Positions 5,585 to 26,060 of a DNA stretch of 29,841 bases are shown in pieces. The stretch lies in NCBI GenBank assembly GCA_937921735.1, contig CAKZTQ010000039.1:1-29841 (forward strand). The letters are read 5' to 3'. Each line of letters begins with the position of its first letter. Position 1 is the first letter of the stretch. A model generated the notes under the pieces. That model had not been told where the DNA came from. It was given only the letters and a program-made list of their open reading frames with translations, and did not search any database. This DNA comes from an uncultured archaeon (GTDB lineage: Archaea > Hadarchaeota > Hadarchaeia > Hadarchaeales > Hadarchaeaceae). Made by a program: the position numbers and the translations under genes.

Positions 5585-6730
5585 TCAAAAGGAAATCCTC
5601 TCGGCCCTCCCGAGGGCTTCCTCCAGCAGGGGGGCAAGGTCCAGCTTTCGCTCCGCCTCCAGGACTCGACCCAAATCCGCGCGGGTCTCCGGGCGCTTCG
5701 GCGCCGCCGCGCAGGGCATCGCCCGCTCGGTGGAAACCTCGTGGGTGCCCAACCTCCTCGCGATCCTTTCTACCTCCACCTTGTCCAAGCCGAGCAGCGG
5801 ACGGAAGACCGGCAGGTCGACGGCGGCGTCCAGCACGCGGAGGTTCGCCAGCGTCTGGGAGGCTACCTGCCCCAGCACCTCGCCCGTGACGATGCCGAGC
5901 GCCCCCTCCCTGGCGGCGACCATCTCCGCGATCCTATACATGCCCCGCTTGCAGAGCAAGCAGGTTAGTCGCCTGGGCGCCCGCTCGACGATCGCCCGCA
6001 ACACCTCGCCGTACGGGACGACGTACATCGCCATCTTCCCCCCCGCCGCCCAATCGCTCAGCGCCCTAGCCGCAGCCATCGCTCGCGCCCTGGCGTCGGA
6101 GTAAGGCCTGGCGTCGAGGTGGACCAAGACCGGCCTGCAGCCCCGCTTCATCATCAGCCAGGCGGCGACCGGGCTATCGATGCCGCCCGAGAGCAACGCG
6201 ACGACCGTGCCCTGCGTGCCCAAGGGCAGGCCGCCGGGGCCTTGAAGCACCTCCGTGAAGACGTACGCGCTTTCCCCCCTGACCTCTATCGAGATCTCCT
6301 CGTCGGGGGCGGAGAGGTCGACCCTAACGCCGGGTATCGCCGCTAGGATGGCCGAGCCCACCGCGGCATCCACGTCCCTGCTCGTGAACTCGTGCTCGCC
6401 CGCCCTGCGGGTGCGGACCGCGAAGCTCATGCCTGGCTCCAAGACCTTCTTGGCGACGTCCACGGCGGTCGAGGTCATCCCCTCAAGTGTGGCGCGCGTT
6501 TTGACCGCGGGGCTGACGGAGACCACGCCCGGTACTCTGACCAAGCGCTCGATCGCCTCGTCCGCCGAGGGCGTCTCGACGAATATCCTACCGCGCTCTC
6601 CCCTGAGCTCGTGATCGATGCCCTTCAGCGCCGCCTTGATGTTCTCGACCAAACATCGCTCGAACCTCCTGCGCACGCGCTCGCTCTTGAGCGCCAGCTC
6701 GCCGTAGCGCACGAGGATCGTCTCGACCAT
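5585..6730 (-). CDS. thiI: tRNA 4-thiouridine(8) synthase ThiI (archaeal Fe-S type, no rhodanese domain)
   Basis: N-terminal RYGELALKS, THUMP domain, GPGGLPLGTQG, PP-loop LSGGIDSPVA, CLLCKR plus a distal Cys, GEVLGQVASQT, RPL. Confidence 0.95.
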   Translation of the reverse strand: MVETILVRYGELALKSERVRRRFERCLVENIKAALKGIDHELRGERGRIFVETPSADEAIERLVRVPGVVSVSPAVKTRATLEGMTSTAVDVAKKVLEPGMSFAVRTRRAGEHEFTSRDVDAAVGSAILAAIPGVRVDLSAPDEEISIEVRGESAYVFTEVLQGPGGLPLGTQGTVVALLSGGIDSPVAAWLMMKRGCRPVLVHLDARPYSDARARAMAAARALSDWAAGGKMAMYVVPYGEVLRAIVERAPRRLTCLLCKRGMYRIAEMVAAREGALGIVTGEVLGQVASQTLANLRVLDAAVDLPVFRPLLGLDKVEVERIARRLGTHEVSTERAMPCAAAPKRPETRADLGRVLEAERKLDLAPLLEEALGRAERISF

Positions 6731-7003
6731 GGCATCCGATTGGCTCTATCGCCGGCGCCGTTAAGAAACTATTCCTTGAATGTTCGAACCTAAACCGCCT
6801 CAGCGCCGGCGGATTTCCCGCCGCGATGATATCGCTCGCCACCGTCGCGATCGCCTCACCGTGGGCGGGATCGACATCGCGCGAAAGACGAGGTAGCCAG
6901 AGATCGTCTCTTACGCCTCAATCCATCGCGTAGCCAAGCCCCCTCCATGCGGAGGCCCCGAGGCGCACATTTTTATCGGTGGAGATAAGTTAGTTGTGAG
7001 ACC

Positions 7004-7786
7004 ATGTTCCAGCCGATCGGGGAGAAGGAAATAACCAGGGCGATAGCCTCCGAGTTCCTCGCCACCCTGAGCGAGTTTGCGGAGAGCGATGTCATAGTCG
7101 TGGGCGCCGGACCGGCGGGGCTGATGGCGGCGAAGGAGCTCGCGGCGAAGAAGGCGAGGGTGCTGGTGATAGAGAGGAACAACTACCTGGGCGGGGGCTT
7201 CTGGATAGGCGGTTACCTATTCAACCCCGTCACCGTAAGGGCCCCAGCGCACGAGGTCCTCCGCGAGCTTGGGGTCCCCCTCAAGGAGAGCATGCCGGGC
7301 CTCTACGTGGTGGACGGCCCCCACGCGTGCTCGAAGCTGATAGCCGCAGCCTGCGACGCCGGAGCCAAGTTCCTGAACATGACCTTCATCGAGGACGTCG
7401 TGCTGCGGGAGGAGAGGGTCGCGGGGGTGGTGGTGAACTGGACCCCGGTGACCGCGCTCCCGAGAGAACTCACGTGCGTGGACCCCGTCGGCTTGGAGAG
7501 CAAGCTAGTGATCGACGCGACGGGGCACGACGCAGCGGTGGTGAGGCTGCTAGAGAGGCGTGGCCTCCTCAAGGTGCCAGGCTACGGGGCGATGTGGGTG
7601 GAGCGTTCCGAGGACCTCGTGGTCGAGCACACCGGCGAGCTCTATCCCGGCCTCATCGTCGCCGGTATGGCGGTGACGACGGCCTACGGCTTGCCCAGGA
7701 TGGGGCCGACGTTCGGGGCCATGATCTTGAGCGGACGGCGCGCGGCCGAGGTCGCCCTGCAGAAGTTACGCGAGCTAAGGGGTTAA
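7004..7786 (+). CDS. thi4: Thiazole synthase Thi4 family protein, with Cys at the sulfur-donor position
   Basis: [38 protein letters not shown]. Confidence 0.95.
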
Positions 7787-7988
7787 TGGACCGCCGCGGG
7801 CGGATGGTAGGTACAAGGTTCATTCGCCCCCAAAGTCGCTAAGGCTTCAAGAGGTAGCCCCGTACATGCGGGAGGACCTTGGGGCTTCCCTTTGACATTC
7901 AGGCCGGGATGTCTCCCCCGAGGTTTATTAACGCTACGAACCATAACAGCTGTGATTTCAGCTGGACCTTAGCCAAGTGGTGGAAGGA

Positions 7989-8405
7989 ATGAGATTGAGG
8001 ATCAAGCGCGAGGACCTGAGCGCGATCGAGAGGCACTCCAAACAAAGCTTTCCGCTGGAGTGCTGCGGCCTGTTGGTCGGAAGGCGCACGGGAACCGAGT
8101 TCGAGGTCCTCGAAGCAGTACCCGCCGAAAACGTGAAGAGATCTCCGACGCTCTTCGAGATGGACCCCCAGTTCGTCCACGCGGTCCTTTCGAGGGCGGA
8201 ATCGAGGGGGCTGACCATCGTCGGCTTCTACCACTCCCACCCGGGGGTGGGGGCGTACGTGAGCGGTAAAGATGCCGAGTTCCTGAAACTATGGCCAGGG
8301 GTAGCGTGGTTGATAATCAGCGCGACGAGGGAGCTCATCGAGGAGAGGAGGGCCTATGTCTACGAGGGCGATGAGATCCGAGAGCTCAAGATAGAGGTTT
8401 ATTAA
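7989..8405 (+). CDS. JAMM/MPN+ (M67) metalloprotease, desampylase-like
   Basis: PLECCGLL and YHSHP-x6-S-x2-D JAMM motif; ATG at 7989 preferred over GTG at 7977. Confidence 0.92.
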   Translation: MRLRIKREDLSAIERHSKQSFPLECCGLLVGRRTGTEFEVLEAVPAENVKRSPTLFEMDPQFVHAVLSRAESRGLTIVGFYHSHPGVGAYVSGKDAEFLKLWPGVAWLIISATRELIEERRAYVYEGDEIRELKIEVY

Positions 8406-8497
8406 GCCAGCTGAAAGCGTGTTAGCCCTATTGCCGCCACCTCGAAGTGAATTTATTTAGCGCGACGCGTCATTCAACCTGTAGAACCGGTGAAAGG

Positions 8498-9688
8498 ATG
8501 GAGATAAACCTCGATAAGTACAAAAACCTGCGCCGAGAGATCGACGAGGGCTGGATAAACCTCCATCCGATCCAGCGGGGCGGGATGCTTCCTCCCGAGA
8601 CCAGGCAAGCCCTGCTCTCCTTCGGCGACGGCTACAGCGTCTGCGATTACTGCTTGGAGGGGCGCGTCGACCTCCTGAAGAAGCCGCCGGTCAAGGATTT
8701 CGCCGAGGATGTAGCGAAGTTCCTCAACATGGACGAGGTGAGGTTCACCTCGGGCGCCAGGCACGCGAAGGCGATAATCTTCGGCTGCCTCGCGGAGCCA
8801 GGCGACACCATCGTCATCGACTCGCTCTCGCACTACACCACCTACATCGCCGCCGAGCTTCGTGGCCTGAGGATAGCGGAGGTGCCACACACGGGCTATC
8901 CCGAGTTCAGGATCGAGCCAGACGCCTACGCGGCGAAGGTCGAGGAGGTGAAGAGGGAGACCGGCAAACCCCCCGCGGCGATCCTGCTCACGCACGTGGA
9001 CTACAAGTACGGAAACCTCGCCGATGCCGCTTCGGTCGCGAGGGTAGCCAAGCAGCATGATGTGCCCTTCATCCTCAACGCCGCCTACACGGCCGGCGTC
9101 ATGCCGGTGGACGGCAAGCAGCTCGGCGCGGACTTCCTGACCTGCAGCGGGCACAAGTCATGGGCGGCCTCGGGGCCCATAGGCATCCTCGCTGCGACCG
9201 AGGAGTTCGCGGACAGGGTCTTCAGGAAATCCTCGATGCGAGGGCCGTGGAGCGGGCGGACCTTCCCCCAGAAGGAGGTATGCCTGTTCGGCTGTCCCCC
9301 CGTCTTCGGCACCCCCATAGCGACGCTGATGGCCAGCTTTCCGCACGTCGTCGAGAGGGTGAAGCGCTGGGACGAGGAGGTCGAGAAGGTGAGGTGGCTC
9401 GTGAGGGAGCTGGAGAGGATCGAGGGCTTCCGCCAGCTGGGCGAGCGGCCGAAGAGACATACCCTCGCCACCTTCGAGTCGCCCTCCTTCCACCGGGTCG
9501 CGAGGGAACACAAGCGGCGCGGGTTCTTCCTCCACGAGGAGCTCAGGAAGAGGAAGATAGCCGGCATACACCCGGGCATGACCAAGCTGATAACGCTGAA
9601 CACCTACGGCCTGGGCATGGACCAGCTCCGAAAAGTCGCGGACGCATTCCACGAGATAGCCAAATCTTACAATATCGAGATTAAGTAA
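8498..9688 (+). CDS. pscS: O-phosphoseryl-tRNA:Cys-tRNA synthase (SepCysS)
   Basis: INLHPIQRGG, GDGYSVCDYC, GAR, SHYTTY, SGHKS (PLP Lys), GC motif, GIHPGMTK; ATG at 8498 follows GGTGA. Confidence 0.93.
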   Translation: MEINLDKYKNLRREIDEGWINLHPIQRGGMLPPETRQALLSFGDGYSVCDYCLEGRVDLLKKPPVKDFAEDVAKFLNMDEVRFTSGARHAKAIIFGCLAEPGDTIVIDSLSHYTTYIAAELRGLRIAEVPHTGYPEFRIEPDAYAAKVEEVKRETGKPPAAILLTHVDYKYGNLADAASVARVAKQHDVPFILNAAYTAGVMPVDGKQLGADFLTCSGHKSWAASGPIGILAATEEFADRVFRKSSMRGPWSGRTFPQKEVCLFGCPPVFGTPIATLMASFPHVVERVKRWDEEVEKVRWLVRELERIEGFRQLGERPKRHTLATFESPSFHRVAREHKRRGFFLHEELRKRKIAGIHPGMTKLITLNTYGLGMDQLRKVADAFHEIAKSYNIEIK

Positions 9689-10009
9689 GCGCTAACGAAT
9701 GCTGGCCGTGCTCGCGCGAAAGCCTTGTAAACACCGCGCACAAACGAAACCTCTGCGGTCAAAATGGGCCCTCGCGCCGTTAATATCCTCGTTCGGCATC
9801 GTCGCCTCGGCGGAGTTCGAGGATAAAACGCAACTCGCCGCCATCACGCTAGCGACGAGGAGCAGACCGCTTCCGGTCTTTTCCGGGGCCATGCCCGCCC
9901 TGCCCTGCCGGCGAGCTATTTGAGGATACGTCCCTCCGCGATCTTCATCCGGTTCGGCATTTCGCTCACGTTGGGCGCGGCCGCTGGCATGGCATTGTCT
10001 TAGCGGGGA

Positions 10010-10432
10010 CTACTTCACCCGCTCGAGGATTATCGCCGGGCAGACCTTGGTGACGCCCTCGAGCCCCCCGATCTTCCCCGTGACGATGTCCGTGAGCTCG
10101 CGGTTGTCGTGGGCCCAGACCTCCGCCATGATCATATGGTCGCCGGTCGAGGTGACGACCGACTTCACCTCCTCAAAGCCCGTGAGTTCCCTCACGATCG
10201 TCAGATACTTGTCGGGCGCGACGTCCAGCCCGACGAGGGCGACGGCGTTGTAGCCCAGCTTCGAGGGGTCCACGACGATGGTGTATTTTTCGATCACCCC
10301 TTCCTGCTCCAGTTTCCTGACGCGCTTCCGCACCGCCGACTCGCTCATCCTGAGCTTTTTAGCTATCTCCAGGAAGGGTGTCCTCGCATCGGCCTGCAGG
10401 GCTTTTATGATCTCGAGGTCCTTTCCGTCCAT
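10010..10432 (-). CDS. Lrp/AsnC family transcriptional regulator (LrpA-like)
   Basis: D.KDLEII..LQADARTPF..IAK.L..SES.VRKRV..L...GVI HTH plus a RAM domain (STGDHMIM). Confidence 0.93.
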   Translation of the reverse strand: MDGKDLEIIKALQADARTPFLEIAKKLRMSESAVRKRVRKLEQEGVIEKYTIVVDPSKLGYNAVALVGLDVAPDKYLTIVRELTGFEEVKSVVTSTGDHMIMAEVWAHDNRELTDIVTGKIGGLEGVTKVCPAIILERVK

Positions 10433-10444
10433 AATCCCCACCTT

Positions 10445-10546
10445 TTGGACGAATTTCGAACGATAAATTTATTAATTAGTCATAATATTTAAAGTTTTGG
10501 GAAGAAAAATGGAAGAAAAAGTCCAAAAAACGACTAATTATGATAA
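10445..10546. promoter_or_regulatory. AT-rich divergent promoter region between lrp and the redox operon
   Basis: TTTATTAA and TTTAAA TATA-like boxes; inverted 9-mers TAATTAGTC (10473-10481) and GACTAATTA (10532-10540). Confidence 0.55.
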
Positions 10547-10547
10547 C

Positions 10548-10829
10548 ATGGCCGACAAAGTGAGGAAGGCTGCCCTCATGGCGCTCGCCGAGTTCAACAA
10601 ATGGCATAGCCCTGAGGCAAACGCTGAAGTCGCGGCTCTGGGCCCCTCCCGCCTGGTCGTGGAGTTGACTGGACCCTATTGTGAGACCTGCGGGTTTTAC
10701 GATTACCTTGACGACCTGAAGCTCGAGCTGGAGGGGAAGCTTAGGCGACCGTTGCGGATCGCTTCGCTCGACAAGCATCTCCATGGTTGCGCGATCGTTT
10801 ACGAGATCGGGGGCCATAGCGATGGATGA
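10548..10829 (+). CDS. Small hypothetical protein with an Nfu/NifU-C-like CxxC (LTGPYCETCG)
   Basis: VVELTGPYCETCGFYDY resembles the Nfu L.G.C..C signature; first gene of the operon. Confidence 0.7.
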   Translation: MADKVRKAALMALAEFNKWHSPEANAEVAALGPSRLVVELTGPYCETCGFYDYLDDLKLELEGKLRRPLRIASLDKHLHGCAIVYEIGGHSDG

Positions 10830-11016
10830 GCAATATAACTGCTTGTTCTGCGGGGGAAGGGTGAACAAGCGAGCAAGGCTGCGGGAGGGGGGAAGGGCGA
10901 GCTTCTGCGACTCCTGCCTGCGGAAACTCGGGCGGAAGGGGTTGCTCAAGAGGCTGTCCGACGGCACCGTGGAGCTCATAAAGCCTTTGATGGAAGTGAT
11001 CGCCAACTATCGATGA
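10822..11016 (+). CDS. Small C4 zinc-finger protein
   Basis: CLFC-x18-CDSC, ClpX-Zn-finger-like spacing; start overlaps the end of the upstream gene. Confidence 0.6.
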   Translation: MDEQYNCLFCGGRVNKRARLREGGRASFCDSCLRKLGRKGLLKRLSDGTVELIKPLMEVIANYR

Positions 11017-11064
11017 TGGTGAGATATAAAAACATCGGCGGAGAGGAGATTGGGGGGTGGATGT

Positions 11065-11400
11065 TTGATCCTATGGAGGTGCGGCGTCTGCGGGTACATC
11101 CACGACGGAGATCAGCCCCCGGAGAGATGTCCCAACTGCGGCGCGCCGAGGGAAAAGTTCGAGAGGCTGCCGGACGATAAGTCCCAACTGTTGACGAGGT
11201 CCAGGTTCACCAACGACTTGCACGTGCAACTGCAGGGCCTCCTCGGGGAGGTCATGGAAGTAGCGCGCATGGGCATCGAGGACAACTTGGACCCGAGGTG
11301 CCTCGAGATATTCACGCAGGCGAAGGAACTGGCGTGGATGCTCAGGCAGAGGTCGAAGGCCGAGGTCCAAACCCATGTGGGTAAAGGAAAGTGGGGGTGA
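11065..11400 (+). CDS. Rubredoxin-like Fe(Cys)4 domain protein with a helical C-terminal domain
   Basis: [26 protein letters not shown]; start uncertain (TTG 11050 or 11065). Confidence 0.85.
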
Positions 11401-11404
11401 GGCG

Positions 11405-11569
11405 GTGGACAAATGGGTGTGCACGGTCTGCGGATACGTCTACGACCCGGCGAGCGGCGATCCGACCGCCAATGTGGAGCCAGGCACGCCGTTCGAGGAT
11501 CTACCCGCGGACTGGGTCTGCCCCGTATGCGGCGCCTCGAAGGATATGTTCGAGAAGATGAGGGGCTAA
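11405..11569 (+). CDS. Rubredoxin
   Basis: [16 protein letters not shown]...[21 protein letters not shown]. Confidence 0.97.
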
Positions 11570-11621
11570 AGGGCGCCGTTTCGCGAGGCTTGAAGCCAAC
11601 TAAAAGATGGGAGGTGGTAGC

Positions 11622-12062
11622 GTGACCAAAGAGGAGATAGTTAGGATGTTAAACCAAGCGCTGGAGCTGGAGCATGCGGCCTACGTGCAATACCTGAGCC
11701 ATGCCGAGCTGGTGGACGGACTGAACGCTGAGCCGATAATAGCCAGGTTACAGGAGATCGCCGGAGACGAGCAGGAACACCAGAAGAAATTCAGGACCCT
11801 GATTAGCGACTACCTAGGAGGGGTGCCCTCGACCGGAACGGCCAGGACCTACCCGGCGAAGACCGTCGAGGAGATCCTACAGGTAAACCTAAAGAACGAG
11901 AGAGAGGCGGTCGACTTCTACAAGAAAATCCTAGAGAAGATCAACGAGGAGAAGGAAAACCTTCCCTACGAGTTCTTCCAGCTGGAGCACGAGGTGAGAC
12001 ACATCATCATGGACGAGCAAGAGCACATCGCCGAGCTTAAGATCCTGTTGGCGATGAGGTGA
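11622..12062 (+). CDS. Ferritin-like/bacterioferritin-like di-iron protein
   Basis: LN.AL.LE..A..QY..H, DEQEH, E.EAV.FY, DEQEH carboxylate/His motifs. Confidence 0.88.
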   Translation: MTKEEIVRMLNQALELEHAAYVQYLSHAELVDGLNAEPIIARLQEIAGDEQEHQKKFRTLISDYLGGVPSTGTARTYPAKTVEEILQVNLKNEREAVDFYKKILEKINEEKENLPYEFFQLEHEVRHIIMDEQEHIAELKILLAMR

Positions 12063-16782: not shown

Positions 16783-17043
16783 CTTTACCTCCTCAGCTTT
16801 TGCCCGATGAAGGGGGTTCCCTTGTTGCATCGGATAACCTTTGCGGTATCCATCTTCGATAGCACGTCGATCCGCCGACGCTGGACGTCATCGCTAAGCT
16901 CAACAAACCCCCTGCCATATTTTTCCGTTTGGTTTTTATATGCTTTTTAAGTGGGAAATTTCTCTCGACTCTATCTGCTGGTGAGTCCAAAATCGGGTCT
17001 AAACTTTATAATTGCATCGAGCCTAACAATAGGGGGTGAGCAG

Positions 17044-18060
17044 TTGGCGATAACGGTAAAGTTCTTCGCCAGCTTTAGGGAAGCCACCGGGAAAGAACAG
17101 GAGACCATAGAGGGAGCAGCTAATGTGGCATCGCTGCTCGAGCAGCTGACGAGAAGATTTGGGGATAAACTAAGTAGATTACTCTACGAGCCGGGCACGA
17201 ACAAACTGCGCGATACCGTCAATATCCTCGTAAACGGTCGGGGGATAAACCTATTGAGCGGGTTACGGACCGAACTGAAAGACGGCGACGTGGTGGCGAT
17301 CTTCCCGCCGGTTTCCGGAGGGGCGGCATTGACACCGGAGGAACTGGAGCGGTACAACCGCCAAATCATCATCTCGGGCTTCGAGAAACGGGGACAGCGA
17401 AAACTGAAGAGGGCACGAGTGCTCGTGGCCGGGCTGGGCGGCCTCGGCAGCCCGGCCTCCGCTTATTTGGTCGCGGCTGGCGTTGGGCACCTCACCATCC
17501 TAGATGCCGAGCAGGTGGAGCTGAGCAACCTCAACAGGCAGATACTGCACTGGAGCTCAGACGTGGGAAGACCGAAAGCAGCGTCGGCGATCGAGAAGTT
17601 ATCTAAGATGAACCCAAACGTGGAGCTGGAGGGCAGGCCGGAGGCGGTGACACGGGAAAACGCGGACGAGCTCGTGGAAAGCGTCGACGTGGTCATAGAT
17701 GGCATGGACAATTACCACGCCCGCTACTTACTGAACGAGGCCTGCGTGCGAAGGCAAGTCCCGTTCATCCACGGCGCCGTTGAGGGCTTCGTGGGCCAAA
17801 TGACCACTATCATACCCGGCGAAGGACCGTGCCTCAGGTGTATTTTCCCTAAGGAGCCGCCCTCGGCGCAGGTCCGTCCGGTCTTGGGCCCAACGCCGGG
17901 GGTGATGGGCTGCCTCCAAGCGATGGAGGCCATCAAGCTCATCGTGGGCATAGGAAAGCCGCTCGTGGGGCAGATGCTGCTCTTCGATGGCGGGGAAATG
18001 GTATTCGACTTCATCCAAGTCCGCAGGGACCCTAACTGCCCGACCTGCGGGGATGTTTGA
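17044..18060 (+). CDS. In-frame fusion of a SAMP/MoaD ubiquitin-like domain (..IFPPVSGG) and a ThiF/MoeB/UbaA E1-like adenylyltransferase
   Basis: TTG at 17044 follows GGGGTGA. ITVKFFASFRE...VNILVNG...LKDGDVVAIFPPVSGG continues without a stop into RYNRQ, GLGGLG, SNLNRQ, DGMDN, CLRC and CPTC. Confidence 0.92.
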   Translation: MAITVKFFASFREATGKEQETIEGAANVASLLEQLTRRFGDKLSRLLYEPGTNKLRDTVNILVNGRGINLLSGLRTELKDGDVVAIFPPVSGGAALTPEELERYNRQIIISGFEKRGQRKLKRARVLVAGLGGLGSPASAYLVAAGVGHLTILDAEQVELSNLNRQILHWSSDVGRPKAASAIEKLSKMNPNVELEGRPEAVTRENADELVESVDVVIDGMDNYHARYLLNEACVRRQVPFIHGAVEGFVGQMTTIIPGEGPCLRCIFPKEPPSAQVRPVLGPTPGVMGCLQAMEAIKLIVGIGKPLVGQMLLFDGGEMVFDFIQVRRDPNCPTCGDV

Positions 18061-18106
18061 CGGAAAAGATTTAGTAGGCCACCCTAGTCCTTTAATGGGC
18101 ATCGAA

Positions 18107-18532
18107 ATGGTAAACGTCGGCATCCATCGCAAGGGGGAGGTCGACTTCTCCAAGCTGCTAGAGGAGCTGAGGAGGGACCTCCCGAGCGATGTGGGCGCGA
18201 TCGGCTGTTTCATAGGCGTCGTCCGCGGCACCTCGAGCACAGGGACGGTGAGGTGTCTTCACTACGAATGCTCGGATGAGGCCGAGAGGAAGATCGAACA
18301 AATCGCTGCTGAGGTGGAGAGGGAACCCAACATCTCGCGGGTGATGATCCATCACATCGTTGATGACCTCTCGCCAGGCGAGGATGCCATTTACGTGCTA
18401 GTGGCCGGAAGGCACAGGGGGGAGGTCTTCTCCGCCCTCTCGAAGATCGTGTATAGGGTGAAAACCGAGGTGCCGATTTGGAAGAAGGAGATCACCGAAG
18501 GCGGGGAGCGCTGGGTCCACGAGGTCGAATGA
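18107..18532 (+). CDS. moaE: Molybdopterin synthase catalytic subunit MoaE
   Basis: GAI..FIGVVR, L.YE, H....L.PGE, HR...F, K..VPIWKKE....ERWV. Confidence 0.9.
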   Translation: MVNVGIHRKGEVDFSKLLEELRRDLPSDVGAIGCFIGVVRGTSSTGTVRCLHYECSDEAERKIEQIAAEVEREPNISRVMIHHIVDDLSPGEDAIYVLVAGRHRGEVFSALSKIVYRVKTEVPIWKKEITEGGERWVHEVE

Positions 18533-18533
18533 G

Positions 18534-19601
18534 TTGCGCCAAGTCGTCGAAACCCGCTACGGCTCGCTGCTGCTGGGCGAGATGCCCAAGGGTTGCAAGC
18601 TCTGCATCAAGGGCGCCAAGCTCGTGCTCTTCGTCACCGGACTTTGCGACCGGGGCTGTTTTTACTGCCCGCTGTCCGAGAGGCGCAGGAGGAAAGACGT
18701 CGTCTACGCGAACGAGCGCCCAGTTAGGTCGCAGCGGGACATAATCGAGGAAGCCAAGCTCATAGATGCCCTCGGCACGGGTTTGACGGGAGGCGACCCC
18801 GCGGTGAGGTTCGAGCGCGCCCTGCGCTACCTTCGGCTCCTTAAGCGAGCGTTCGGCAAGCGCCACCACGTCCACATGTACGTCGGCCGCCAGCTCTCGT
18901 CGAGGCAGCTGCTCAGGTTGCGACGGGCTGGGCTAGACGAGCTCAGATTTCACACTTGGTCGGCAGAACCGGTCGAGTTGGCGCTAGATGCTGGGTTGAA
19001 CGCGGGAGTCGAGATCCCTGCCATACCTGGTGAATTCCGGAGGATCGTGATGCTGCTCCGAGAGCTCGACCGCATCGGTTGCCCTTTCGTTAACCTGAAC
19101 GAGCTGGAGTTCTCGGATACCAACCTGCGTGCGCTCAAGGTGAGGGGCTTCGACATCAAGTCGGATGAGTCGATGGCGGTGAAGGGCAGCGAGGAGCTCG
19201 CGCGGAAGGTGCTCGAGTGGGCCCGAGGCACCGACCTCAACATCCACTATTGCCCCAGCGCCCTCAAGGATGGAGTACAGCTACGCAACCGGTTGAAGCG
19301 GAGGGCCAGAAACGTGGCTAAGCCTTACGATGTCATCACCGAGGACGGCTTGTTGGTAAAGGGGATCGCCTACGATATACCGCCGTCGAAGCTAGCGGAG
19401 GTGCGGAGGAGGTTGATGAGGGACTACGATATCCCCGGCGACCTGATAGCGGTCGACAGACAGAAGCAAAGGCTGGAAATGGCTTGGCACGTTGCGGAAG
19501 GGCTGGCCAAGTTAGAACCGAGCATGAAATTTGCACTCGTCGAGGAATACCCGACGTACGATCGCCTAGAAACTACCTTCGTGCCCCTCCATACCAACTA
19601 A
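18534..19601 (+). CDS. Uncharacterised archaeal radical SAM protein (COG2108-like)
   Basis: GCKLC..GAKLVLFVTG, CDRGCFYC (CxxxCxxC), TGGDP, GLDELRFH, NLNELE.S. Confidence 0.88.
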   Translation: MRQVVETRYGSLLLGEMPKGCKLCIKGAKLVLFVTGLCDRGCFYCPLSERRRRKDVVYANERPVRSQRDIIEEAKLIDALGTGLTGGDPAVRFERALRYLRLLKRAFGKRHHVHMYVGRQLSSRQLLRLRRAGLDELRFHTWSAEPVELALDAGLNAGVEIPAIPGEFRRIVMLLRELDRIGCPFVNLNELEFSDTNLRALKVRGFDIKSDESMAVKGSEELARKVLEWARGTDLNIHYCPSALKDGVQLRNRLKRRARNVAKPYDVITEDGLLVKGIAYDIPPSKLAEVRRRLMRDYDIPGDLIAVDRQKQRLEMAWHVAEGLAKLEPSMKFALVEEYPTYDRLETTFVPLHTN

Positions 19602-24130: not shown

Positions 24131-24254
24131 ACCTATATTAAATAGCCTCCATCCCCTAAAAAAACTCGGGCCCCTCGAGCGAGCTTGAGCTTCGTCGCGC
24201 CTTCGAACCTAAATTTACTTAAACCGGCGGGCGCAAGTGGTACCGAGGACCGAA

Positions 24255-26060
24255 ATGAGGTTAAAGTTGCTCCGAGTGGACCTTTCGTCTGGCTCCATGA
24301 GAGATGAAATGGTGGACGATGAAGACGTGGAGAAATTCATAGGGGGACGGGGACTCGGGGTAAAAATTCTCATGGATGAACTAAAGCCCGGCGTCGACCC
24401 TTTGGGGCCGGAAAACAAGCTGATCTTCATGGTCGGCCCGGCGACGGGAACTGCCTTTCCCGCCAGCGGCAGGTTCCACGTGATCACGAAATCCCCGCTG
24501 ACGGGTGGGATAGGGGACTCCAACTGCGGGGGAGACTTCGGTCCAGAGCTGAGGTTCGCGGGTTACGAGGGCATCATCTTTGAGGGCAGGGCGGACGAGC
24601 CAGTTTACCTCTGGCTACACAACGGGGAGGCCGAGCTTCGACCTGCGAAACGCTATTGGGGCAAGGGCACATGGGATACCGAGGACGGCATTCGCAGGGA
24701 GCTGAAGGATCCGGCGGTTAAGATAGCCAGCATCGGTCCGGCGGGAGAGAACTTGGCCATGTGCGCAGCTATAATCAACGACAAACATCGCGCCGCGGGC
24801 AGGACGGGCGTGGGAGCGGTAATGGGCAGCAAGCGCCTTAAGGCGGTGGCCGTGAGGGGAACGAAAAAGCCGCCCATCGCGGACGAGGGAAAGCTCAAGG
24901 CAGCCGTGGAGAAGGCGCTGAAGATGATCAAGGACAGTCCAGTCACGGGGCAAAGCCTGCCCAAGTACGGCACGGCCGTCCTCGTAAACATCATCAACGA
25001 GGCCGGCATCTACCCGACTCGCAACTTTCAGACGGGCGTTTTCCCGACGGCGGACAAGACGGGAGGCGAGACCATAGAGAGGACCGTGCTCGTGAGGGCC
25101 AAAGCATGCTGGGGCTGTCCGATCGCGTGCGGCAGGGTGTCAAAGGTGACACAACCACCTTATCAAGTGGAGGGCGAGGGGCCCGAATACGAGACTACGT
25201 GGGCGCTCGGTGCGCAGTGCGGCATAGACGACCTCGCAGCGATAGTCAAGGCTCACAACCTCTGCGACGAGCTCGGCATAGACCCCATCTCCTTCGGGAG
25301 CACCGTGGGCTGCGCGATGGAGCTCTACGAGAGGGGTAAGATCTCCAAGGAAAGGCTGGGAGGGCTCGAGCTCAAGTTTGGCAATCCACAGGCGATCGTG
25401 GAGCTAGCTTGGAGGACGGCCTTCCGCGTGGGCTTCGGCGACGACATAGCGCTCGGCGCGAGGAAGCTCGCCGAGAAGTACGGCATGCCGGAGCTCGCGA
25501 TGCACTCAAAGGGACTCGAATTGCCGGCCTACGATCCAAGGGGCGTACAGGGCCACGGGTTGGGTTATGCGACGAGCAATAGAGGTGGCTGTCACCTTCG
25601 CGCGTACATGATCGCGCCGGAGATCATCGGCGTGCCCGAGCGCCTCGACAGGTTTGCGACGGAGGGCAAGGCAAAATGGGTGAAGACCTTTCAGGATCTC
25701 TTCGCCGTCTGCGACTCGGCGGTCGTCTGCAAGTTCTTGACCTTCGCGATAGGGGCACAGGAGATCGCCGAGATGCTCAACGCCATCGCCGGCTGGAACT
25801 GGACCGCCGACGACCTCCTCGGGGCTGGCGAGCGGATATACAACCTCGAGAGGCTCTTCATCAATCGCGAGGGCTTTGGGCGCGAGCACGACACCCTTCC
25901 GCAAAGGCTGCTGAAGGAACCCATGCCCGAGGGTCCTTCGAAGGGACATGTGGTGAGGCTAGACGCGATGCTCGACGAATACTATAAATTGCGGGGATGG
26001 AAGGACGGAAGGCCGACGCCGGAGAAGCTGAAGGAGCTTGGACTCAGCGAGTACACCTAG
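24255..26060 (+). CDS. aor: Tungsten-containing aldehyde:ferredoxin oxidoreductase
   Basis: LRVDLS, IGGRGLG, KSPLTG, IGPAGEN, GR.GVGAVMGSK.LKA, CWGCPIAC, PEYET, DELGID, YDPR, RGGCH, YY.LRGW. Confidence 0.95.
   Translation: MRLKLLRVDLSSGSMRDEMVDDEDVEKFIGGRGLGVKILMDELKPGVDPLGPENKLIFMVGPATGTAFPASGRFHVITKSPLTGGIGDSNCGGDFGPELRFAGYEGIIFEGRADEPVYLWLHNGEAELRPAKRYWGKGTWDTEDGIRRELKDPAVKIASIGPAGENLAMCAAIINDKHRAAGRTGVGAVMGSKRLKAVAVRGTKKPPIADEGKLKAAVEKALKMIKDSPVTGQSLPKYGTAVLVNIINEAGIYPTRNFQTGVFPTADKTGGETIERTVLVRAKACWGCPIACGRVSKVTQPPYQVEGEGPEYETTWALGAQCGIDDLAAIVKAHNLCDELGIDPISFGSTVGCAMELYERGKISKERLGGLELKFGNPQAIVELAWRTAFRVGFGDDIALGARKLAEKYGMPELAMHSKGLELPAYDPRGVQGHGLGYATSNRGGCHLRAYMIAPEIIGVPERLDRFATEGKAKWVKTFQDLFAVCDSAVVCKFLTFAIGAQEIAEMLNAIAGWNWTADDLLGAGERIYNLERLFINREGFGREHDTLPQRLLKEPMPEGPSKGHVVRLDAMLDEYYKLRGWKDGRPTPEKLKELGLSEYT

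Follow-up and report, generated by a model that had tools for sequence, protein, structure and literature searches.

The gene at positions 17044–18060 of the DNA analysed here (the window, i.e. the whole 29,841-nucleotide stretch of contig CAKZTQ010000039.1 from an uncultured archaeon of the order Hadarchaeales) is predicted to encode a single chain, in which a ubiquitin-like (Ubl) sulfur carrier of the MoaD/SAMP1 type runs on from its Gly-Gly end into the N-terminal residues of its own MoeB-type adenylyltransferase (E1). Comparison with related species suggests that this fusion is probably a precursor that is cut after Gly93 by a class-A JAMM/MPN+ metalloprotease encoded at 7989–8405 of the same window, after which the carrier would be adenylated, thiocarboxylated, and used by MoaE. 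The layout described in the original prediction, which was made from the window alone, was recovered: the Ubl domain ends in PPVSGG (Gly-Gly codons at 17317–17322), passes through Ala-Ala into a complete MoeB/ThiF-type E1 domain, and is followed by moaE. A single open reading frame (ORF) covers both domains with no stop at the junction, and the three parts match the Pfam families ThiS, ThiF, and MoaE. The coordinates of all features are given in Table 1.

Both domains of the fusion were readily assigned to families. Residues 5–93 match Pfam ThiS (E-value 2.3e-18, 67 bits with a cut-off of 22.5), and the Ubl domain alone exceeds the cut-offs of the NCBIfam models TIGR01687 moaD_arch (101.2 bits, cut-off 49.5) and SAMP1 NF041918 (73.1 bits, cut-off 60). 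Its match in the Protein Data Bank (PDB), obtained with phmmer, is Thermoplasma Ta0895 (2g1e, E-value 4.7e-17). The E1 domain matches Pfam ThiF with residues 104–334 over profile positions 1–238 of 238 (E-value 3.8e-79) and the Escherichia coli PDB entries 1jw9_B and 1zfn_A (phmmer E-values of ∼2e-54). It scores just under the cut-off for the MoeB subfamily NF004281 (260.5–261, cut-off 266) and below those for UbaA NF047750 (259.9, cut-off 450) and TIGR02355 (210–212, cut-off 376.55); the domain is a member of the MoeB/ThiF family without an equivalog assignment. The likely start of the gene is TTG 17044; GGGGGTGA, a Shine-Dalgarno (SD)-like element 4 nt upstream, matches the anti-SD sequence in the 3′ end of the 16S rRNA of the same genome (..GATCACCTCC). 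At the junction, a stop after Gly-Gly, which would leave a free C-terminal Gly-Gly, is absent from the window: GCG GCA TTG continue in frame, and the sequence after Ala-Ala is TTG ACA CCG GAG.. (= LTPEELERYNRQ). In the phmmer alignment with E. coli MoeB (1jw9_B), residue 94 of the fusion is matched to MoeB residue 2, so the whole carrier abuts the whole E1 with essentially no linker. In an AlphaFold2 monomer model of the fusion (mean predicted local distance difference test score, pLDDT, 76.6; predicted template modelling score 0.63) the position of the Ubl domain relative to E1 is not fixed, and the pLDDT below 50 for residues 90–96 is weakly consistent with an exposed, flexible tail.

The same architecture is found repeatedly among homologs. 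Among the best 120 homologous clusters listed, 45 protein clusters from four source collections contain both domains at 59–95% identity, and those that bear a name are Hadesarchaea; a further cluster, P0046, starts with MFPPVSGG.. and looks like a truncated gene call. Gly92 and Gly93 are invariant in all 46 fused proteins that were compared, as is the whole AIFPPVxGG motif, the most conserved stretch of the Ubl domain, while the one or two residues after Gly-Gly are variable, with an indel among the differences, as would be expected if a functional tail were followed by a spacer. Gly-Gly is also kept in 12/12 distant ThiS-ThiF(-rhodanese) fusions (12 of the best 150 representatives at 50% identity), where it precedes linkers of varied length of up to ∼26 residues.

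Since the genome of the window is a metagenome bin (60 contigs, 83% complete) and sister species carry a stop at the same place, the continuous frame might be thought to stem from faulty assembly or sequencing, or from a stop that was lost recently in a pseudogene-like manner. The junction was checked across studies on Logan assembled contigs, not on reads. Contigs X2 (study P2, 16800–18038), X3 (P3, 16805–18106; labelled metatranscriptomic and flagged as probably DNA), and X6 (P4, 17297–17466) are 90–95% alike and cross 17322/17323 with no stop or indel at the junction; no indel is listed for 17000–18084, and the changes near the junction (17316, 17328, and 17334) are synonymous only. Contig X1, which is identical over 16800–18600, is probably the source and was not counted as independent. 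These bridging contigs from three other studies, the 45 independent fused clusters, the 12 fused species genomes described below, the intact frame, and the low dN/dS led us to reject the artefact, whose probability is negligible. The fusion is thus confirmed as real, and its conservation indicates that it is under selection.

Species of the same order in which the two domains are separate provide the closest comparison. The bins of the relatives are 56–95% complete, and the genomes are not independent of one another. The fused gene is present in 12 of 65 species genomes, with one additional partial copy, and in ten of the 65, both coding parts share one frame and are separated by a single stop exactly after Gly-Gly (10 of the 22 colinear orthologs). 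This makes the fused domain an ortholog of a free carrier that terminates in Gly-Gly. The stop is directly followed by ATG in g16 and by CTT ATG in G006. A tree of the orthologs, which took in 19 rows and left out G001 (cut by a contig end) and two g16 rows (missed by the motif filter), requires at least two changes between the fused and stop states and splits into two clades. Clade I comprises the window, G003, and G012, all fused, and the stop form G006, with the pair set between genes for TBP on one side and MoaE and a radical SAM protein on the other (moaE was not scored in G003). Clade II comprises eight fused and seven TAG forms; in its scored flanks (G004, G021, G019, G008, and G014), a homocysteine operon (HcyBio-CBS, NIL-ferredoxin, and a protein of ∼259 residues) is found on one side of the pair and SepCysS on the other. 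The dN/dS of the Ubl domain is 0.23–0.24 in fused lineages and 0.26 in TAG stop lineages, values that are rough because they come from ungapped windows and non-independent pairs with near-saturated dS in the fused clades. With a stop right after Gly-Gly in 10 of 22 orthologs and at least two switches of state, the function of a free Gly-Gly carrier is the conserved one. A stop after Gly-Gly in close relatives had been named in the original prediction as an outcome that would speak against a precursor; such a stop does occur in sister species, and it supports the need for a free Gly-Gly instead.

The candidate processing enzyme is a JAMM protein of the Prok-JAB family (E-value 5.3e-19, 68.6 bits with a cut-off of 25) that aligns with Pyrococcus furiosus JAMM1 (5lda/5ld9, E-value ∼3e-14) and contains an intact metal-site motif (HSHPGVGAYVSGKD, corresponding to HxHx7Sx2D), in line with what had been proposed for this gene. 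Its score for the haloarchaeal desampylase equivalog NF041370 is 75.2 bits, below the cut-off of 130. JAMM proteins of the order fall into two classes. Residues E28, H86-S-H88, S96, and D99 are invariant in 16/16 orthologs of the window's JAMM. When this protein was used as the query in a survey of class A, the class was found in ten of the 12 genomes with the fused gene vs one of the ten with the stop form, which bears out the expected co-occurrence of fusion and protease. The gene lies within 1.3 kb of the fusion in six genomes (G004, G046, G021, G051, G050, and G054), at 7.5–9 kb in G003 and in the genome of the window (G000), and on another contig in G012 and G019. In G014, the only stop-form genome with a class-A JAMM, the gene adjoins a Ubl-E1 fusion of a second kind (see below), and no JAMM of either class was found in the three g16 genomes. 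Among genomes with a fusion of either kind, 18 of 20 have class A, vs 12 of 43 without a fusion.

Because class A was not found in the fused genomes G001 (79% complete) and G055 (87% complete), both of which have a class-B JAMM, the cut after Gly-Gly could be attributed to another agent: the second JAMM of the window's genome (G000:C45:29407–29814, class B, with HSHx7SxxD intact), a different peptidase, or self-cleavage assisted by E1. Class B is, however, also present in the stop-form genomes G052, G047, G008, and G006 and so does not track the fusion, whereas class A does, is syntenic with it in six fused genomes, and is the closer relative of PfJAMM1. We regard a different agent as quite improbable.

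A terminal glycine that is held in a peptide bond cannot be adenylated, as established by the chemistry of MoaD, ThiS, and ubiquitin activation. In the fusion, Gly93 is bonded in this way and lacks a free carboxylate, so the chain would have to be cut after this residue, most likely by the PfJAMM1/HvJAMM1-like metalloprotease of the window. The freed carrier of 93 residues would then be adenylated by an E1 dimer and converted into a thiocarboxylate via a persulfide donor. MoaE, the product of the next gene, would use it for molybdopterin or tungstopterin, supplying eight enzymes of the aldehyde:ferredoxin oxidoreductase (AOR) type, and the released carrier may also serve other sulfur-relay routes. 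It is from the architecture and its conservation, the orthology with a free carrier, the JAMM motif, and the phyletic link that we infer that the chain is cleaved, which protease does so, and what chemistry follows. Cleavage is considered the most likely reading because Gly93 must be free and because there are precedents for JAMM enzymes acting on linear SAMP fusions after Gly-Gly, as had been pointed out beforehand. HvJAMM1 cuts an engineered SAMP1-MoaE fusion exactly after Gly-Gly, in vivo as well as in vitro; Gly-Gly is required for this cut, which is a prerequisite for molybdopterin synthase activity (PMC4443979). DRJAMM likewise cuts the natural MoaD-MoaE fusion of Deinococcus radiodurans precisely behind Gly-Gly (PMC8832034). 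As these two reports describe them, both substrates resemble the window's protein in the Gly-Gly linkage between carrier and partner, in the molybdopterin synthase pathway, and in the family of the protease, and the carrier is inactive there until it is cut; the partner is MoaE in those fusions and E1 in the window. In the literature searched, we found no published experimental cleavage of a natural Ubl-E1 fusion.

Several observations weigh against the proposed processing. The argument for cleavage by the JAMM, best supported as it appears, is one of comparison, and the contrast between fused and stop forms rests on about two clades, whose members are kin and not independent. In the window, the JAMM gene is ∼9 kb away from the fusion, class A was missed in the two fused genomes named above, and in seven of the 12 non-fusion genomes that have it, the gene lies 0.3–3.4 kb from an unfused E1. 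Its distribution indicates that class-A JAMM is a general companion of the Ubl/E1 system, i.e. a general SAMP protease that is retained wherever the fusion exists, and not a fusion-specific partner. The genome also encodes five free MoaD/ThiS-type proteins and a second, Cys-bearing E1, so that one of the free carriers could serve MoaE instead, and E1 might be made free from the outset, with no cut needed, at an in-frame TTG that GGAGG precedes by 7 nt. The extra E1 that could come from this TTG, the five free carriers, and the second E1 reduce the 1:1 supply of carrier and E1 and the proteolytic switch of the original prediction to conjecture. The precursor itself fared better, being supported by the carrier orthology, the Gly-Gly invariance, and the JAMM association; the ratio and the switch were overstated, and the architecture is not new.

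A different reading of the same protein is that the fusion stays uncut and that its Ubl domain, never transferred, serves as a fixed module to occupy or regulate the Ubl site of E1, with a free Ubl protein as the real carrier and free E1 perhaps made from TTG 17329. The five free Ubl proteins end in Gly-Gly (one of them in GGGF), and one, at C18:30580–30864, is 44% identical to the fused domain; the GGAGG upstream of TTG 17329 and the TAG clade discussed below, where a read-through fusion might work uncut, also fit this reading. It is at odds with the invariance of the tail and Gly-Gly in 46/46 proteins while the next residues vary, with the occurrence of the same domain as a free Gly-Gly-terminated protein in ten sister genomes, with the equal constraint on the Ubl domain in fused and free states, with the position of the fused Ubl as the only one in the genome that adjoins MoaE, and with the lack of conservation of TTG 17329. 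On balance, a permanently uncut fusion is unlikely. The TTG codon deserves a separate comment. The GGAGG formed by the Gly-Gly codons (17317–17331 region) precedes it in the same build as the one in which GGGGGTGA, 4 nt, and TTG make up the gene's own start, and TTG 17329, the first codon of E1, could be an internal start that yields free E1. As a conserved feature this start was rejected: the codon is TTC in G003, TTA in G012, and CTG or CTC in clade II among the other fused orthologs.

In seven species (loci L018, L050, L054, L055, and L057 in g7, and L020 and L056 in g8), the junction, corresponding to window positions 17323–17365, reads ..GGT TAG CTT ACG CCA... In this TAG clade, no ATG, GTG, or TTG is found ahead of the conserved RYxRQ of E1 (in G043, the first canonical E1 start lies 30 codons in), and the 12 codons between TAG and RYxRQ evolve as coding sequence (dN/dS of 0.23, a rough value). 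An SD-like GG[A/G]GGT precedes E1 in the clade, and G006 has ATG where the TAG clade has ACG. For six of these seven species, the survey gave no class-A JAMM. A role of TAG as a genome-wide sense codon was rejected, since TAG ends 51 of the 194 ORFs of at least 150 residues that end at a stop in G014 (237 kb); the same check counted the stops that lay in frame within tblastn matches, namely TGA (28), TAA (17), and TAG (12). Pyrrolysine at TAG was not supported (PylS over the cut-off in 0/5 TAG-clade genomes), nor was a conserved RNA structure after TAG (1/33 predicted pairs compensatory, covariation term of −0.13). With TAG an ordinary stop, PylS absent, and no conserved RNA structure, E1 in this clade has to come from non-canonical initiation or from read-through. 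If read-through is true, its product is the same fusion as in the window, and this fusion is active as an E1 without being cut; for a clade without a canonical E1 start and mostly without class-A JAMM, read-through would indeed need such activity, which also weighs against the proposed processing. We put forward only tentatively, as a rather unlikely scenario, that the codon after Gly-Gly is an evolutionary toggle, with TAG read-through or an SD-driven non-canonical start setting a high carrier-to-E1 ratio and the sense-codon lineages making the two 1:1 and relying on JAMM.

The E1 domain retains the catalytic elements of its family. Residues R103, Y104, R106, and Q107, the glycine-rich stretch G130–G135, D222, and the cysteine pairs C263/C266 and C332/C335 are invariant in 46/46 fused proteins, and the domain aligns end to end with the E1 enzymes of the E. 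coli MoeB-MoaD (1jw9/1jwa/1jwb) and ThiF-ThiS (1zud) complexes, and retains their nucleotide loop, their Asp, and the two CxxC motifs. In those E. coli systems, carrier and E1 are separate proteins, and an arginine of the N-terminal helix of MoeB acts in trans. In a dimer of the fusion, the tail of one chain might conceivably reach the active site of its partner subunit. MoeB Cys187 and ThiF Cys184 have no counterpart in the window family: their position aligns with Ala/Gln in PPSAQVRP of the fusion in the phmmer alignment, and no crossover-loop Cys after the first CxxC was found in the 46 aligned fused proteins. The second E1 of the genome carries this Cys (PTCEVAG). The missing loop Cys had been noted in the original prediction and taken to favor adenylation and sulfur transfer over thioester chemistry; the absence holds in all 46 fused proteins, and the conclusion is weakened by the invariant Cys290 that the family possesses. 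This residue (17911–17913) lies in the helix after the loop (GVMGCLQAMEA) and is present in all 46 fused proteins, and the aligned position is occupied by Ser/Thr in MoeB and ThiF of E. coli. Cys290 may or may not substitute for the absent loop Cys.

The architecture itself has already been catalogued, and the gain is a testable system, not a new principle. Archaeal MoaD-MoeB fusions were counted in 2024 as cluster 356.1, for which the row of the supplement lists Hadesarchaea:1, and the main text places such fusions in Thaumarchaeota (61/98), Rokubacteria, and NC10 (PMC11237513); ‘Ubl-E1-TBP’ of Thaumarchaeota was noted in 2010 (PMC2948915). These fusions likewise have an N-terminal MoaD/ThiS-type beta-grasp domain followed by a MoeB/ThiF E1. 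The window fusion differs from them in having no linker, no C-terminal extra domain, stop-form sisters, and a phyletic link to JAMM, while the entries of these two sources list architecture only. ThiS-ThiF fusions of delta/epsilon-proteobacteria and Firmicutes, in operons that also contain a solo ThiS-like protein (Iyer, Burroughs, and Aravind 2006, PMC1779556), have the Ubl domain N-terminal to a ThiF-type E1 as well, and their solo protein parallels the five free Ubl proteins found here; their setting is that of thiamine and their Ubl domain is from another family, and the passages of that paper on the fusions do not discuss processing. The ubiquitin precursor of Caldiarchaeum subterraneum, processed by CsRpn11, is another archaeal Ubl precursor trimmed by a JAMM-type enzyme (PMC6043591). 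As presented there, it carries a short C-terminal extension and is encoded in an E1/E2/E3 conjugation operon, whereas the window has an E1 fusion in a sulfur-relay setting. If the cut were confirmed, the window gene would represent a natural Ubl made on its own E1 and released by JAMM, which would carry the MoaD-MoaE case over to the activation step. Hadarchaeales would offer a ready-made comparison for this, with close species that differ by a sense or stop codon after Gly-Gly and by the presence of the protease.

Table 1. Features of the fusion locus, the candidate protease, neighboring genes, and the second kind of fusion (window coordinates unless a locus is named)
Feature	Position	Strand	Remarks
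Fusion gene, MoaD/SAMP1-type Ubl + MoeB/ThiF-type E1	17044–18060	+	338 aa; TTG start; TGA stop at 18058–18060
SD-like GGGGGTGA	17032–17039	+	4 nt ahead of the likely TTG start 17044
Ubl (beta-grasp) domain	17044–17322	+	Residues 1–93; ends AIFPPVSGG
Gly92-Gly93 codons GGA GGG	17317–17322	+	Proposed cleavage site after 17322
Two-codon spacer GCG GCA (Ala-Ala)	17323–17328	+	Same position is TAG or TGA in sister species
Junction sequence of the fusion protein			..PPVSGGAALTPEELER
E1 adenylyltransferase domain	17329–18057	+	Residues 96–338; RYNRQ, GLGGLG, Asp222, CxxC 263/266 and 332/335, no loop Cys
JAMM/MPN+ metalloprotease, class A (PfJAMM1/HvJAMM1-like)	7989–8405	+	Candidate processing enzyme; Prok-JAB
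SepCysS (Sep-tRNA:Cys-tRNA synthase)	8447–9688	+	TIGR02539, 517.8 bits (cut-off 365)
moaE, molybdopterin synthase large subunit	18095–18532	+	Pfam MoaE, E-value 6e-23; only MoaE found in the genome
Radical SAM protein, no assigned subfamily	18534–19601	+	Best NCBIfam E-value 6.6e-06
AOR (tungstopterin enzyme)	24237–26060	+	One of 8 AOR in the genome; pterin cofactor consumer
Second-kind fusion, L032	3055–4170	-	
Second-kind fusion, L033	3609–4709	-	
Second-kind fusion, L034	3517–4617	+	
Second-kind fusion, L035	3262–4365	+	

The genome is small and encodes MoaC in addition to its eight tungstopterin enzymes of the AOR type, and the position of the pair next to the sole MoaE gene gives the pair metabolic weight. 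In relatives, the gene directly after the Ubl-E1 pair is SepCysS, and the location of the pair inside the homocysteine/SepCysS operon bears on the sulfur donor of those routes. A counterpart of the radical SAM gene follows the fusion and moaE in G012 and lies downstream of the fusion in G003. The five free Ubl genes neighbor, respectively, a PP-loop ATPase for tRNA thiolation (one), AOR genes (two), and a ThrC/CysM-like enzyme (one), and the last is an orphan. One of them, the MoaD-type protein at G000:C16:58445–58810 (minus strand), sits between two AOR genes and ends in ..PPVGGGF. Since this end extends beyond the glycines by one residue, the protein would need C-terminal trimming of its own.

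A second, independent Ubl-E1 fusion occurs in eight genomes of the order at 39–47% identity. It has Gly-Gly followed by a linker of ∼5–9 residues, carries a Cys in the loop (IPTCQEAG), and ends in a tail, ..CEVRF, that is conserved; it adjoins a PALP (CysM/ThrC-like) gene, TusA, and a class-A JAMM. Its counterparts are split in G000 (C15). There, the region at ∼6000–12000, with the second E1, NifS, a SepCysS-like protein, ThiS, and a ThrC-like protein, has a local GC content of 0.48 compared with 0.556 for the contig and may have been acquired laterally. The HcyBio/NIL-ferredoxin operon of G000 (C21:29057–32626) has lost the Ubl-E1 pair, and positions 5585–9688 of the window form a sulfur-relay cluster of ThiI (minus strand), Thi4, JAMM, and a true SepCysS. 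The bin also contains two archaeal 16S rRNA matches, G000:C55:6926–8402 and G000:C24:8–1546 (1519.8 and 1069.6 bits), the second of which could be a copy that has diverged, is interrupted, or is of foreign origin.

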